Source of the DNA: Escherichia phage mckay
Sequence record: NC_073073.1
Length of the DNA: 44,443 nucleotides
Direction: 5' to 3' (one strand)
This document shows, in pieces, positions 12,815 through 38,933 of this stretch (its first letter is position 1; the number at the start of each line of letters is the position of its first letter). A model generated the notes under the pieces. The model had not been told where the DNA came from. It made no database searches and worked only from the letters and a program-made list of their open reading frames with translations. The translations under genes and the position numbers were made by a program.

Positions 12815-14091
12815 TTATTTACCTTCCAGCTTCTCCACTTTATGCAACAGGTGGACGAAGGCGGCACACAGATCCATTAACAGAACGTTACTATCCAAAG
12901 ACAGCACATCGTCGGTATACCCGATCTCCTTGCGGTCGACTACAACCTCATTCCCTTCCTCGTCAACCCCCTTGACGTCCTCATAAATGGCGTAACCCGG
13001 CAGCAAATGCACGTATTCCGGGTCAATCCTTGCCAGGTCCTGCGCGATAAGGCCGTATCGCTGTACGTCCGACTCCTTATACTTGAACATTGCCGGAAGC
13101 CATTGTCGAACTCGGTTGTAGCTTTCCTCGCCGTCAGTGTATTGGATTTCTTTTTTAAGGTCGCGGTCCGATAGCGGCGCTTTCTGGAACTCGTTAACCG
13201 AAGGGTTGCCGCTGTTACCACTAATCAGCCTTTGGTCTGGCATAAAGCGGAATAGCGCCTCGGAAACACCGTCCTTCCACGTATGAATCCGGTAGTCCGA
13301 CATTTGAGTGTTACGAGAGCGAACAATGCCTGCGCGCACCCAGTCGGCGTACCATTTGTGCATGGTGAAGCCTACCCAACTGTCAGCCCCATACGATACG
13401 TTAGACAGAACTAAGCCGTTTCTTTCGACGTCATTGAATACTAATGACTCCCCACCATTCAGACGTAATGTTGCGTGTTTAACGTTACTATCATCACCAA
13501 CGCCAAGATTAGCGCGTGCCGACGATTTATCTGCGACGTCTGCCAGGTTCTGCGACTTCTTCATGAATTGCGTAGGGTCGATCGCGTTTTTGAAGTCTTC
13601 GGCCTCATTGCGAAATCCTTGCGCTGCTGCTTCAGATGCCGCGGCTTGTTGTTGCAGGTTGCGCATTTCAACGGGGTCAACTTCCTTCAGCAATTGCGAC
13701 AGATAGCCCCACGACATGCCCTGCATAACTTGCCCGTTCGGCAGCGTTACCGTGACTTCTTCTTCGTCTCCGAAGATGGCACGCCAGTTGTTTTCGTCTG
13801 CGATCATCAAGCGCAACGCTTTCTGTGCCTGTACTGTTACGCCCATCGTTGCCAGCGACATGGTATCGCGCTTAACGCCATCCCACGCGAGGTCTGTTGC
13901 CGTGGGTCCGTCGAACGGCAGCACCAGCGTAAGCGCGGTGTCGCTTTCAACTGACGCGATAGCAACAGTGTATGGGACTTGCCCTACTACCAGCGTTAAG
14001 AAGTCGCCAGCGGTAAACGCGGTAAACGTCGTGCCTACCCCGACAACCTCCTTGCTGTTATTCGTTACGGATAGTGTACCCGCTGCCATAG
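12815..14091 (-). CDS. Tail fibre protein with C-terminal intramolecular chaperone (peptidase S74-like) domain
   Basis: Start taken at ATG 14091 (MAAGTLSV, GAGGA RBS) rather than ORF-track 14116. C-terminal LSDRDLKKEIQY...YGLIAQDLARIDPEYV matches the auto-cleaving chaperone domain of tail fibres/endosialidases. Confidence 0.7.
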
Positions 14092-14106
14092 CTGAATCCT
14101 CATAAA

Positions 14107-14138
14107 TTGGTTGCATTAATGGTTAAGCAGTGCAATAC
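14107..14138 (+). promoter_or_regulatory. TTGGTTGCA-containing promoter-like element (TTGCAT-17-AATACT)
   Basis: Motif at 14107-14115 in the divergent gap between the tail-fibre gene (-) and the lipoprotein gene (+). Confidence 0.35.
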
Positions 14139-14169: not shown

Positions 14170-14388
14170 ATGAAAACTTTAATTATGATTTGTGCGGTTC
14201 TTTTGTCCGGTTGTGCCGACATGCCGTCTAAAATCTGCGACGCAACATACATGAATAGTGGTATGGAGTATTCCGTCCAGGTGTTTGGGGTCGCCGACTT
14301 TAGCGGGCACAAAATGCTCGAGGCCGGGTATCCGTTCAACTTCCAGTATGTGTCGGTCGACCACTTCAAAAGCACCACCTGCGAATAA
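14170..14388 (+). CDS. Small lipoprotein (72 aa), moron on the opposite strand to the tail genes; Cor-like candidate
   Basis: Start at ATG 14170 (AGGAG RBS); signal peptide MKTLIMICAVLLSGC with lipobox LSGC; own promoter-like motif and terminator. Confidence 0.6.
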   Translation: MKTLIMICAVLLSGCADMPSKICDATYMNSGMEYSVQVFGVADFSGHKMLEAGYPFNFQYVSVDHFKSTTCE

Positions 14389-14410
14389 GCCCCTTTCGGG
14401 GCGTTTTATA
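14389..14410 (+). terminator. Rho-independent terminator after the lipoprotein gene
   Basis: GCCCC-tttc-GGGGC hairpin followed by GTTTTATA. Confidence 0.55.
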
Positions 14411-15077
14411 TCCCATCCACGTTAATTGCGGTCAGCGCAACGCCTGTGTTTTGATACCCTGCGATGCTCCCTGACCCAGCCTGCGTAGCGACCGCGTTAA
14501 TACGAGTGCCGCTTCCGTTGTCGTAAGCCCCGGCCCCTGCCGAGATCTGGATAATCTGCGGCTGCCCTTGTACAAAGATCTGGATCAGAGTGGCGCCCAT
14601 TAACATAGGTGATACCGCGTACTTACCCGGCAGCGTCTGGTCTATGTTTATCCCGCCGTTATTGCCGAAGCTGCCAACTGTGACTAAATCGGTGAGTACC
14701 TTGCTCTCGTTGGTGAGTATGCACGTCCCGCTGGCGTCCCAAATCGCGAAGCCCCATTTTGGCAGCGGTTGCGGGAATCGCGCGAATACGTACGCCGTGA
14801 CGGTAAAATGCGGGTTATTCTTACCCTGAATGCTTCCGCTAAATATAATCCGGTTACCTGATCGTGACGCCGCCAGGACGCAACGGTTATTCGACCGCAT
14901 AAACACCATCGCCGGATAGTTCGCGGGGATATCCACTGCGCCACTCGCGGTTTTATAATACGCCCCTGCGTCCACTGAGTTTGCCGACACCTTAGCATAG
15001 AGAACGAATGGCGTTGAGTTTGGCGTGACGAATGGGTTGCCGTTGTTGTTGTCAATTAATGCTCCGAAGTTTGCCAT
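14406..15077 (-). CDS. Hypothetical G/N/S-rich protein (223 aa), possibly tail-associated
   Basis: ORF between J and the tail-fibre gene; composition typical of beta-rich structural proteins; no specific motif. Confidence 0.5.
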   Translation of the reverse strand: MANFGALIDNNNGNPFVTPNSTPFVLYAKVSANSVDAGAYYKTASGAVDIPANYPAMVFMRSNNRCVLAASRSGNRIIFSGSIQGKNNPHFTVTAYVFARFPQPLPKWGFAIWDASGTCILTNESKVLTDLVTVGSFGNNGGINIDQTLPGKYAVSPMLMGATLIQIFVQGQPQIIQISAGAGAYDNGSGTRINAVATQAGSGSIAGYQNTGVALTAINVDGI

Positions 15078-30264: not shown

Positions 30265-31029
30265 ATGAGACTGACGAAAGACATTAAAAACCAGATTCTG
30301 GCTAACATCCTGCGCGACCATGAAATCGCGACCGAAGCCAAATCCATCATGATGGACTCTCGCAACCTTGCGTACGCCATTACGCTGGACTGTATGCCGG
30401 AAGGCATTCGCACTTTCGCCGAGCTACTCGCGCGCATTAAATCAATCGGCGATGACCCGTCGCAGATGTACGGAGTACGCGTATACACCAACAAGGCGAC
30501 GTATAGTTATAACGCTGACCGCCCGTATGGTATCGGCCACGTTTATGACGCCACTTTCGAAATCAACGCCGGCGGAAACGTCCGTACCGTGTCATTGAGC
30601 GGAGACGGACACCGATTCCGAGTACATCGCGGATACTGGGAATATAAATACATGAATAAGCTGTCTCCCGATCTCGGCGATATTGTGCCAGGGTATGAGG
30701 AAATTTTGTTAGCGTCAGTGTGCGAAGTGGACGAGGATGGGAAAGCGCTGCCGATCTATAAGCCGCGCTGTCGTGCAGATTTCCCGGCAGATCATGACTT
30801 CTGCAAGCGCCTGGACCGTAACGACAAGGCCCGCCGCGAGTTGCGTGCTAAGTATGACGCGTTCAAACTAACTGTTACCGGCGTGCTGGATATGCACAAT
30901 ACCGATAAGAAGCTGATCAAGGCGTGGCCTGAAGTTGAACAGTTTATTCCATACCCGGATAAGCCGAAGTCCACGGCGGTGGCGCTGGACGTGAAGACGT
31001 TAAACGAAATCTGCGGTATTCCGCGTTAA
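30265..31029 (+). CDS. Hypothetical protein (254 aa); opposite-strand moron inside the head module
   Basis: Complete ORF with AGGA RBS, own promoter-like element upstream and a hairpin terminator downstream, transcribed against the late operon; no motif I can name. Confidence 0.6.
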   Translation: MRLTKDIKNQILANILRDHEIATEAKSIMMDSRNLAYAITLDCMPEGIRTFAELLARIKSIGDDPSQMYGVRVYTNKATYSYNADRPYGIGHVYDATFEINAGGNVRTVSLSGDGHRFRVHRGYWEYKYMNKLSPDLGDIVPGYEEILLASVCEVDEDGKALPIYKPRCRADFPADHDFCKRLDRNDKARRELRAKYDAFKLTVTGVLDMHNTDKKLIKAWPEVEQFIPYPDKPKSTAVALDVKTLNEICGIPR

Positions 31030-31034
31030 CAAAA

Positions 31035-31060
31035 GGGGGCCATTATGGCCCCCGAATTAT
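31035..31060. terminator. Bidirectional terminator hairpin
   Basis: GGGGGCC-atta-TGGCCCCC with T-rich tracts on both sides (TTTTGTT on the - strand, GAATTATTTT on the + strand). Confidence 0.55.
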
Positions 31061-31273
31061 TTTCTGCAACTCCAGCACTTGCGCCCTTAGCTTCGCGCCG
31101 CATTCCATATTTTTCACGTCAATCATCAAATCTTCGTCGGGATCCGCGGACGGGTTATCGAACTTGCACGGCGGTCGCAGTGCCGACTCCGTTAGCGGCA
31201 TCAACGGCACGTTGCTTGATCCGCACGCGCTCAGCATCAAAACTACAATCAGGGCGGTTAGGGCGCGTAACAT
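31043..31273 (-). CDS. Outer-membrane spanin (Rz1-like lipoprotein), putative
   Basis: Start taken at ATG 31273: MLRALTALIVVLMLSAC has signal peptide plus lipobox LSAC; short Pro-containing mature part; lies in a second frame overlapping the 3' half of the i-spanin gene. Confidence 0.55.
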   Translation of the reverse strand: MLRALTALIVVLMLSACGSSNVPLMPLTESALRPPCKFDNPSADPDEDLMIDVKNMECGAKLRAQVLELQKIIRGP

Positions 31274-31484
31274 ATTTAACAACCTCTTTCGTGATAGTCC
31301 GGTATTCTACGTCGCGGGCTTGTTCGGCCTGCACGGAGCGCTCAATAACTTTAGTTTGCTGCCGTTGGGCTTCTGCTTGCGCTTCTTGCGCTGCTCTCGC
31401 CTCAACGCCAGCGCGGTAGGAATCACCCAGCCAGAAGCCAACCGCCAGGCCGATAACCAGCCCAATCGCTGCATATTTAATCAC
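31155..31484 (-). CDS. Inner-membrane spanin (Rz-like), putative
   Basis: Start taken at GTG 31484 (GGGGGC RBS); N-terminal transmembrane helix IKYAAIGLVIGLAVGFWLG, then coiled-coil (RAAQEAQAEAQRQQ) and a C-terminal Cys; overlaps the o-spanin gene. Confidence 0.5.
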   Translation of the reverse strand: MIKYAAIGLVIGLAVGFWLGDSYRAGVEARAAQEAQAEAQRQQTKVIERSVQAEQARDVEYRTITKEVVKYVTRPNRPDCSFDAERVRIKQRAVDAANGVGTATAVQVR

Positions 31485-32580
31485 GCCATAGCCCCCGGTT
31501 TTTAAGCTGTGCAATAGTCATCAGTTCGCCGGAATCGGTGAACATCTTTGGCACTTTCACACCGCGCATAATCTGGTCGGCGCGTTGCACCCCGTATAAT
31601 TCTTCCAGGATATGGCGCGGCTGGCGCTGCACCCAGGAGAAGAAATCAGTCTGCGCGTCGACCTGCTCACTCAGCAACCGACCCGCGTCAGCCTTCAGTG
31701 CCGGACGCTTACCACTGGGCCAGTCTTCCATGCCCTTAACTTTCCACGTCTCCGTCGAACGGCAGCAATAATGCAGCTTGCCCGGACCAGCGCCATATTG
31801 TGATCCCGCCACCACTTTCCCGCCGCGTTTTCCTTTGGTGTCGGGAGTGACGTCAACAGGATAAAACAGGCGATCGCGTAGCTGGCACATAGGGGAAGTA
31901 TGAGTGTCCAATGTGGCCAACCATTGGCGACCTTCGAGAATATCGTCATTAGCTTTCACCATTAATTCGCGGGCGGTCGCCGCATAGTGGTTGACAGCGG
32001 ACTTAACAACGCTTGAGATTGCTTGCGCACTACGACCGCCGAGCGCGCGCCTCACGTCCGCGATAATTTCCATAGTCGGCTTGCCCTGGATGAATCCGGC
32101 GCGCACCTGATTGCCGATCTGCGTCCTTGTCCACTCTGAAAGTGAATCCGGCCATTGCATCATGGTGTTACCCTGGAACGGGTTTTTCATCGCAGTCGCT
32201 GCGATCTGCGCGCCTGTTACTACACCCACCACCTCGACCGCAGGTACGGCGACCACCGGCTGGATCACTGCCGTTAATGTGTCGGCGAGATAATCGGCCT
32301 CGATGTCGGCAAACTCCTGAAGGCTTTCAGCCAGCGCCTTAAACTCGGTGCGCAGTTCTGTTTTAACGGTCTTGTCGAGTTGCGTTAACAGTGTGGTAAG
32401 TGCCTTGTTGCTCATGGACTTTTTGCCATCAAGTAACTCGGTCAGCTTACCAAGTAAAGTGGGCCGGAACTTCTCCCACATAGCCAGCACCCTCCGCGCC
32501 TGATCATTGCTCAGGCGCTGGGTGAAGATGTGACGGCGAATCATTCGATCCGCCAAATGTTGATTAATTGTCTTCGCCAT
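31477..32580 (-). CDS. Head morphogenesis protein (Mu F / SPP1 gp7-like minor head protein)
   Basis: 367 aa; ATLDTHTSPMCQ...DG is the characteristic Mu F-like motif; follows the portal gene. Confidence 0.75.
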   Translation of the reverse strand: MAKTINQHLADRMIRRHIFTQRLSNDQARRVLAMWEKFRPTLLGKLTELLDGKKSMSNKALTTLLTQLDKTVKTELRTEFKALAESLQEFADIEADYLADTLTAVIQPVVAVPAVEVVGVVTGAQIAATAMKNPFQGNTMMQWPDSLSEWTRTQIGNQVRAGFIQGKPTMEIIADVRRALGGRSAQAISSVVKSAVNHYAATARELMVKANDDILEGRQWLATLDTHTSPMCQLRDRLFYPVDVTPDTKGKRGGKVVAGSQYGAGPGKLHYCCRSTETWKVKGMEDWPSGKRPALKADAGRLLSEQVDAQTDFFSWVQRQPRHILEELYGVQRADQIMRGVKVPKMFTDSGELMTIAQLKNRGLWRD

Positions 32581-37500: not shown

Positions 37501-37705
37501 ATTAATTCACTTCCAGATTATGGGATCGAAGACAATATACCACTGTCCCTATGGCGGCGGGCTATAGCAATTCGCAAATAACCATACCGATGAATGCTGA
37601 GGCGGACCAGATCGCCAATACCCAAATATCATTACGTGCCATAGTGTAATACTCCTCTTGTTGATTGGTCGCAGTATGGTCAGATTGTTGGTTGCAAGTC
37701 AAGCA

Positions 37706-37922: not shown

Positions 37923-38414
37923 TTATGCTGCGTTTCGCCCGATTCTCTCGGCAACGTCCCACTGCTTACCATCGAATAGCGCCTGTCTGCCGATTGCACG
38001 ACGGACAAGCCCCTTGAGCACTACCCCGCCTTGCTTGCGGAATTGTGGCAGTGTAGCCCGTACCTTCGCCCAGTCACCCAGGCGGATCGCATCGTCGAAA
38101 TCACCCGCGACGTCGTCCGGCATGATCGGACCTGGACCAGCATTGATAACCAGGTCCACCAGCGCGTCGAATTGCGCCTGATTGATGCTCGGGTGTGCGT
38201 ACTTGTTCACCCAGTTTTCGGCATACGCCACGTCGCGCTTGAGTAGCTCCAGTGCTTCCGCACGGGTAATGCTCCGCGGCGGATTAGTGCCGGTGTGACC
38301 ATAGCCCCAGGTATACAGGCCGCGGGCCTGCTCTTTCTTAGTCGCGAAATACGGCACTGGGCTGAATTGCTCCCATGCTGCCGTAAATCTTAGACCGTTG
38401 TCACTGAATCGCAT
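37923..38414 (-). CDS. Endolysin (phage lysozyme, GH24-like)
   Basis: 163 aa; N-terminal region with E...TWGYGHT(G) resembles the GH24 lysozyme signature; adjacent to holin-like genes. Confidence 0.7.
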   Translation of the reverse strand: MRFSDNGLRFTAAWEQFSPVPYFATKKEQARGLYTWGYGHTGTNPPRSITRAEALELLKRDVAYAENWVNKYAHPSINQAQFDALVDLVINAGPGPIMPDDVAGDFDDAIRLGDWAKVRATLPQFRKQGGVVLKGLVRRAIGRQALFDGKQWDVAERIGRNAA

Positions 38415-38646
38415 GCTTTACCCCATTCAAAACAGCATTACGCAGCGTGCGCAATGCAAACAGCCAGATTAACGCGGTCCAGGTGGTGTCTGATACGTCT
38501 CCTGTTTGCAACAATCCGATAACGCAGACCATCGCCGTTAGCAGATATAACACCCGGCCTAAAATGCCATCCTGGACGGACGGCGCATACACGTTAAACA
38601 GGGACGAAGCCCCTATGATAACAAACAACAGGACGGAGATAATCAT
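38401..38646 (-). CDS. Small membrane protein (holin/antiholin-like)
   Basis: 81 aa with two predicted TM helices; start overlaps the upstream holin stop (ATGA). Confidence 0.5.
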   Translation of the reverse strand: MIISVLLFVIIGASSLFNVYAPSVQDGILGRVLYLLTAMVCVIGLLQTGDVSDTTWTALIWLFALRTLRNAVLNGVKHAIQ

Positions 38647-38933
38647 TTTGCGCCCCCCGGAAGTCGGAACGACTCAATAGTCTCCCTGATCCGGGCGGCT
38701 ATTGGCATCCAGAAGATGGCAGTTACGAAGCCCAACCCGGCAACAGTGCGCTCGCCAGATAAGCCAGCCCACTCGGCAATAGCTGGCGCACCAAATATGG
38801 CACACAAGAAGCCGACCACGATATATAAAACGAAGTTTAGCGGCCCTTTCGTAGCCTCGCCATGAATGCGAGCGCCAACGAAGCCCCCCGCGAGACACGC
38901 GAGGGCGAATAGCCACTCGTTTAGCTTATCCAT
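38643..38933 (-). CDS. Holin, putative
   Basis: 96 aa; multiple hydrophobic helices with charged C-terminus; first gene of the lysis cassette. Confidence 0.55.
   Translation of the reverse strand: MDKLNEWLFALACLAGGFVGARIHGEATKGPLNFVLYIVVGFLCAIFGAPAIAEWAGLSGERTVAGLGFVTAIFWMPIAARIRETIESFRLPGGAK

Follow-up and report, generated by a model that had tools for sequence, protein, structure and literature searches.

The locus considered here raises the question of whether two small overlapping genes of the minus strand, located among the head genes of Escherichia phage mckay and apart from the holin and endolysin genes, encode the spanins of this phage. The analysed stretch of sequence record NC_073073.1 comprises 44,443 nucleotides and is hereinafter referred to as the window. 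It belongs to a Dhillonvirus and is approximately 94% identical to phages McMelon and Gluttony. The 2.4-kb neighbourhood of the two genes matches 156 phage records, including 135 with at least 80% coverage and mostly 90–95% identity, nearly all of which are Escherichia/Dhillonvirus phages. In the records of phages Bas84 and Gluttony, the same two ORFs are labelled i-spanin/Rz-like spanin. It is very probable that the two genes constitute the i-spanin/o-spanin pair of an HK578-group (Dhillonvirus) coliphage, namely an overlapped two-component spanin of the “Jersey” family, as judged from homology and topology signals. According to Kongari et al. (2018, PMC6139136), this family comprises the spanins of phages Jersey, SETP3/SETP7, K1G/K1ind, EP23, HK578, JL1 and SO-1, HK578 being listed in both the i-spanin and the o-spanin families. 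The literature examined contained no experimental work on the Jersey spanins. For this phage group, existing records already catalogue both the pair and its distance from the holin and endolysin genes, so that the finding is correct but ordinary.

The i-spanin gene (31484..31155, minus strand) starts with GTG and encodes a protein of 109 aa, which was characterised by its open reading frame, hydropathy, a PHROG match and homology to a protein of phage K1ind1. For residues 1–19 (VIKYAAIGLVIGLAVGFWL), the Kyte-Doolittle hydropathy averages 2.02. The membrane helix, located at approximately residues 4–20 and preceded by Lys3, is kept in all eight Dhillonvirus genomes whose spanin regions were aligned as the conservation sample (78–94% nucleotide identity). 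Hydropathy analysis revealed no second hydrophobic stretch in the protein. A single N-terminal transmembrane domain and a short positively charged cytoplasmic end are those of a type II membrane protein with the N-in/C-out orientation. The membrane helix is followed by a long charged segment rich in Ala, Gln and Glu, the linker TRPNRPDC containing Cys80 and a second short segment. The AF2 single-sequence model, which is of low confidence (pLDDT 65.5), contains helices at residues 4–72 and 84–97 with a linker at residues 73–83, and this helix-linker-helix arrangement agrees with the short Jersey i-spanin subfamily described in PMC6139136. The first-pass annotation had proposed an Rz-like ORF with an N-terminal transmembrane helix, which is borne out by the hydropathy of the N-terminus and the match to phrog_2536, and a C-terminal cysteine, which proved to be residue 80 of 109, within the linker that separates the predicted helices.

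The i-spanin matches phrog_2536, “Rz-like spanin” (6.3e-36), and is 41% identical to gp06 of phage K1ind1 by BLASTP (E = 7e-15), the periplasmic cysteine being conserved. A tblastn search with this protein found 665 phage records; the matches listed include Dhillonvirus, Jerseyvirus (with SETP7) and Kagunavirus phages, and several are annotated as spanins. The identity to the HK578 counterpart was 92.7% by tblastn. With its GTG, the i-spanin gene overlaps the end of the preceding head-morphogenesis gene, including the stop codon (8 nt, GTGATTAA), an arrangement that hints at translational coupling between the two. A GGGGG Shine-Dalgarno-like run is located 7 nt 5′ of the GTG, within the 3′ end of the head-morphogenesis gene (31492..31496, minus strand). 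An alternative TTG start at position 31514, which would give a protein of 119 aa, was dropped in favour of the GTG at 31484 because the latter has the Shine-Dalgarno-like site, is conserved in eight of eight genomes and serves as the start codon in the database entries of Bas84 and HK578. The length of the i-spanin varies within the genus: four of the eight genomes encode the 109-aa form and the other four a form of 102 aa, the variable C-terminus corresponding to window positions 31155–31175 (minus strand). As the final seven residues of the 109-aa form are not conserved, the exact interacting C-terminus of the protein is uncertain.

The o-spanin gene (31273..31043, minus strand) starts with ATG and encodes 76 aa; it was found with a lipobox scan, PHROG matches and homology to K1ind1. 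Its N-terminus reads MLRALTALIVVLMLSAC followed by GSS and contains the lipobox L-S-A-C, with Cys17 as the predicted lipidation site. Arg3 in the n-region and a hydrophobic core of 2.99 complete a signal of the signal peptidase II type. Gly, rather than Asp, at position +2 predicts sorting of the protein to the outer membrane. The lipobox is retained in all eight Dhillonvirus genomes as L[ST]AC or MSAC. Two conserved cysteines, Cys36 and Cys58, are present in the mature protein of 60 aa, and its C-terminal segment reads KLRAQVLELQKII. Together with Cys80 of the i-spanin, both cysteines are invariant in the eight genomes and are aligned with cysteines of the K1ind1 proteins. The Shine-Dalgarno sequence AAGAGG (31283..31288, minus strand), which lies within the coding sequence of the i-spanin and 9 nt 5′ of the o-spanin ATG, is also kept in eight of eight genomes. 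A TTG start at position 31282 was considered and dropped, the ATG at 31273 being positioned 9 nt after AAGAGG. The protein matches two “Rz-like spanin” families, phrog_5672 (1.1e-26) and phrog_1267 (1.7e-11), and is 50% identical to K1ind1 gp07 by BLASTP (E = 1e-15), with both cysteines aligned. A Pfam scan of both spanin proteins gave no match above the threshold; the λ-type Rz/Rz1 models miss this family, whereas PHROGs detects it.

The coding sequence of the o-spanin ends within a hairpin resembling a bidirectional intrinsic terminator (31035..31053, both strands), which has eight base pairs, including seven G-C pairs, and a T-run on each strand. The hairpin, GGGGGCCA-UAA-UGGCCCCC, carries the o-spanin TAA stop codon in its loop, and one of its arms is formed by the last three o-spanin codons (R-G-P). 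It folds with energies of -18.8 and -18.2 kcal/mol (z = -2.7 and -2.45). The outermost pair has undergone a compensatory change from G-C to A-U in three of the eight genomes, and the HK578 record annotates terminators at the same place. The initial suggestion that the 3′ end of the o-spanin gene also forms a bidirectional terminator thus agrees with the position of the stop codon in the loop and the T-runs of both strands. The hairpin is common to the spanin transcript (minus strand) and to the convergent Nmad5 gene (plus strand). The latter (30265–31029; 254 aa, PF18757, 9.2e-55) separates the spanin pair from the scaffold gene. In phage HK578, a different reverse-strand gene of 423 nt is found at this position, so the slot looks like a variable cargo slot. 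A paper published in 2025 reported that phages evade the Tmn defence system through single K-to-E changes in Dhillonvirus nmad5, namely K216E in a short form and K296E in a long form. In the mckay Nmad5 protein, residues 215 and 216 of its own numbering are both Lys.

Immediately upstream of the i-spanin gene lies the head-morphogenesis gene (Mu F/SPP1 gp7-like; 31477..32580, minus strand; phrog_241, 3e-117), and according to the ORF map the spanins close the terS-terL-portal-head morphogenesis run. The placement of the pair between the head-morphogenesis and scaffold genes, proposed in the first-pass annotation, agrees with this map. The same annotation placed the pair about 6.5 kb from a holin/endolysin cassette at 37923–38933; the measured distance between the spanin pair and the endolysin gene is 6439 nt, occupied by the exonuclease, terS, terL, portal and head-morphogenesis genes, and the cassette was confirmed by PHROG and Pfam as two holin-like genes and an endolysin gene. 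All three genes of the cassette are on the minus strand: a holin-like gene of 96 aa (38643..38933; phrog_2359, holin, 9.6e-32), a second holin-like gene of 81 aa (38401..38646; phrog_2508, holin, 6.3e-27), possibly an antiholin partner of the first, and the endolysin gene encoding a phage lysozyme of 163 aa (37923..38414; PF00959, 3.7e-20; phrog_7, 8.5e-37). No N-terminal membrane or SAR segment is visible in the endolysin sequence. The lysis genes do not form the classical contiguous holin-endolysin-spanin cassette of the λ SRRzRz1 kind. A second spanin near the endolysin, two-component or unimolecular, was sought and discarded, as the ORFs downstream of 37923 are without a lipobox. For a small ORF just past the endolysin terminator (37562–37702, minus strand), which ends with a hydrophobic sequence (…MARNDIWVLAIWSASAFIGMVICELL), PHROG gave no match; the ORF may encode a small membrane protein or be no gene at all.

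Three further terminator-like hairpins are located on the minus strand: before the holins (38968–38939), after the endolysin (37732–37711) and before terS (36141–36121). They consist of 9–12 base pairs followed by T-runs and lie in intergenic gaps. Since they bracket the holin-holin-endolysin genes and precede terS, their arrangement suggests that the lysis cassette is a transcription unit separate from the one ending with the spanins. From the strong minus-strand hairpins at four places, we infer that the spanin genes would be the last cistrons of a unit extending from terS to the head-morphogenesis gene. This assignment, like the coupled start of the i-spanin, draws on consensus scans, which were used qualitatively only, as the total counts of promoters and terminators were no higher than in shuffled sequence.

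The two genes share 119 nt (31155..31273, minus strand), the o-spanin frame being shifted by +1 against that of the i-spanin and running 112 nt beyond the i-spanin stop codon; the overlap shrinks to 98 nt in relatives with a 102-aa i-spanin. An out-of-frame lipoprotein ORF with the lipobox LSAC had been claimed previously, and it is this reading frame that could be disputed. It might be supposed that only the i-spanin-like ORF is real and that the lipoprotein ORF is a chance frame, its downstream part being non-coding terminator sequence. The uneven annotation of the o-spanin speaks for this supposition: the call is only 159 nt in the Gluttony record (L002, 2345–2503) and only 144 nt in the SETP7 record (L003, 6291–6434), both without the lipobox, and the HK578 record (L008) has no o-spanin annotated. 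Absent or short calls of this gene are, however, a known annotation artefact, considering the 196 unannotated o-spanins reported in PMC6139136. The full lipobox-bearing ORF was found in the DNA of Gluttony and HK578, and the scan did not recover such an ORF in SETP7. Both ORFs are intact in all eight Dhillonvirus genomes, down to 78% nucleotide identity, with the start codons, ribosome-binding sites, lipobox cysteine and all three periplasmic cysteines present in each. The codon-position pattern is frame-specific as well. Within the part belonging to the i-spanin only, the variability is 0.264 at the third position of the i-frame versus 0.101 and 0.065 elsewhere; the part belonging to the o-spanin only shows 0.291 at the third position of the o-frame versus 0.120 and 0.036, and in the shared 98 nt the variability is flattened (0.133, 0.067 and 0.156). 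The first part is therefore coding in the i-frame and the second in the o-frame, and the shared stretch is constrained in both. Throughout the last 21 nt of the 109-aa i-spanin coding sequence the variability follows the o-frame only, and this tail of seven codons evolves as if selection acted solely on the o-spanin frame, which fits the existence of 102-aa i-spanins in half of the genomes. With the strong PHROG matches and the K1ind1 homology added, a chance origin of the o-frame appears extremely improbable. The scarcity of lipobox ORFs points the same way, since scanning all six frames of the 44-kb window for lipoboxes yielded only five distinct candidate ORFs (six start-codon variants); this scarcity, the conservation in eight genomes and the frame-specific pattern indicate that the pair is more than a product of chance.

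The only other credible lipoprotein among these lipobox candidates is a Cor homologue of 72 aa (MKTLIMICAVLLSGC...; 14170..14388, plus strand), which matches Cor superinfection-exclusion proteins (phrog_1119, 4.1e-27) and is encoded on the strand opposite to the spanins, between the tail-fibre gene (12815–14116) and a membrane-associated “moron” gene (14406–15077). Phage lipoproteins such as Cor act in exclusion, and the presence of one in mckay would suit another view of the overlapping genes, in which both products are genuine envelope proteins with a role outside lysis, in superinfection exclusion or receptor masking, or serve as accessory factors of head assembly. The location of the genes within the head block, 6.4 kb from the holin and endolysin genes, is in keeping with such a role, and the papers examined describe no experiment linking the family to lysis. 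Nevertheless, all the family matches obtained are to spanins and none to head or exclusion proteins; head-protein homology had been named at the outset as an observation that would overturn the spanin assignment, and no similarity of either protein to head proteins was detected with Pfam or PHROG. A type II membrane protein whose gene overlaps, in the +1 frame, that of an outer-membrane lipoprotein, together with conserved periplasmic cysteines, is the signature by which PMC6139136 defines spanins. A non-lysis function would also leave a phage of a Gram-negative host without any spanin candidate. Moreover, distant homologues are encoded directly after the endolysin and holin genes in the head-gene region of Vibrio phage pYD38-A (Roufvirus; L005, 6203–7337), where the i-spanin has 126 aa and the overlapped o-spanin, unannotated in the record, has 81 aa and the lipobox ISGC. 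We consider a role outside lysis very unlikely, and the spanin identity proposed originally is upheld by the PHROG spanin families, the K1ind1 homology, the membrane helix, the lipobox and the +1 overlap.

The reading frames, targeting signals and homology of the spanin pair, the constraint in two frames and the conserved hairpin and synteny are the observations to which the λ Rz/Rz1 paradigm may be applied by analogy. The N-terminal helix of the i-spanin would anchor the protein in the inner membrane, with a mostly helical domain projecting into the periplasm. After export and attachment of lipid to Cys17, the o-spanin, which has Gly at +2, would come to lie in the inner leaflet of the outer membrane. 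Binding of the i-spanin to the o-spanin through their C-terminal parts would give a complex spanning the periplasm through the peptidoglycan mesh, and Cys80 of the i-spanin and Cys36 and Cys58 of the o-spanin probably form intermolecular disulfides and covalent dimers. After release of the soluble lysozyme-type endolysin by the two holin-like proteins and degradation of the wall, the freed spanin complexes would move, collapse and fuse the inner and outer membranes, removing the last barrier to phage release. As for expression, the o-spanin may be translated from its own internal AAGAGG site and the i-spanin by coupling to the upstream stop codon, and the spanin transcript would end at the hairpin that doubles as the coding sequence of the o-spanin C-terminus.

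The separation of the spanins from the remaining lysis genes has parallels in related phages. In SETP7 (Jerseyvirus) and K1ind1 (Kagunavirus), the spanins are likewise located between the head-morphogenesis and scaffold genes, and K1ind1 has the same layout as mckay, with the holin-holin-endolysin genes upstream of the terminase. The separation was explicitly stated in the genome announcement of the related phage Schulenberg (2019, PMC6763661). As pYD38-A possesses the endolysin, holin and homologous spanins between the head-morphogenesis and capsid genes, the slot may once have held the whole cassette. One could tentatively suppose that the head-module slot is the ancestral home of the lysis cassette in this siphophage lineage and that Dhillonvirus and at least Kagunavirus K1ind1 (Guernseyvirinae) moved the holin and endolysin genes upstream of the terminase, the spanins staying behind as terminal cistrons of the packaging/head operon, a scenario that we regard as conceivable but rather unlikely. 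If it were true, the supply of spanins would be tied to virion-gene expression and not to the holin clock. Part of the same scenario is that the C-terminus of the Dhillonvirus o-spanin (R/K-G-P) would also be constrained by the RNA terminator it encodes.

The consequences of these findings are limited mainly to correct annotation. The set of lysis genes in mckay is complete, in that the phage encodes a two-component spanin besides the two holin-like proteins and the soluble lysozyme. The o-spanin gene, often missed or truncated by automatic pipelines, is real and extends in full over 31273..31043. The conserved split between the holin/endolysin genes and the spanins means that searches for spanins should reach beyond the neighbourhood of the endolysin, as already argued in the spanin literature.

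Comparison with the known spanin systems shows several levels of similarity. Like the mckay pair, λ Rz/Rz1 consists of an inner-membrane protein of type II topology and a small lipoprotein of the outer membrane that is encoded in the +1 frame, and the periplasmic domain of the former is helical, as the low-confidence model predicts for mckay; both components have periplasmic cysteines, and the role in the last step of lysis is presumed to be the same. However, λ Rz1 is fully embedded in Rz, within the S-R-Rz cassette, whereas the mckay o-spanin extends past the i-spanin and the pair is placed 6.4 kb away; there is also no similarity at the level of Pfam models. The original description of the pair as the classic Rz/Rz1 overlapped architecture is thus right as to the overlap, which is of the kind found in P2 LysB/LysC, and mistaken as to Rz/Rz1, the λ genes being embedded. 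In phage P2, as in mckay, the o-spanin gene begins inside the i-spanin gene and runs past its end, but LysB/LysC are encoded within the lysis cassette and belong to a different sequence family in PMC6139136.

The T4 genes PseT.3/PseT.2 provide the classical precedent for spanin genes unlinked to the holin and endolysin genes (PMC6139136). The T4 o-spanin is, like that of mckay, comparatively long and has a predicted C-terminal helix. Unlike the mckay pair, the T4 spanins are of the “separated” architecture and of an unrelated family, and the lysis genes of T4 are scattered in general. The closest resemblance is to the Jersey family itself, where the same +1-overlapped pair with one cysteine in the i-spanin and two in the o-spanin is encountered. 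The conserved o-spanin cysteines are spaced 22 residues apart in both cases (alignment positions 45 and 67 in PMC6139136), and the short helix-linker-helix i-spanin of mckay, as represented by the low-confidence model, matches the two-helix subfamily extending from EP23 to SO-1. The surroundings vary, since in Dhillonvirus the spanin pair is followed by a reverse-oriented cargo gene and the bidirectional terminator, whereas in SETP7 and K1ind1 it is followed directly by the scaffold gene. Between the Jersey family and the mckay pair there is no difference of kind.
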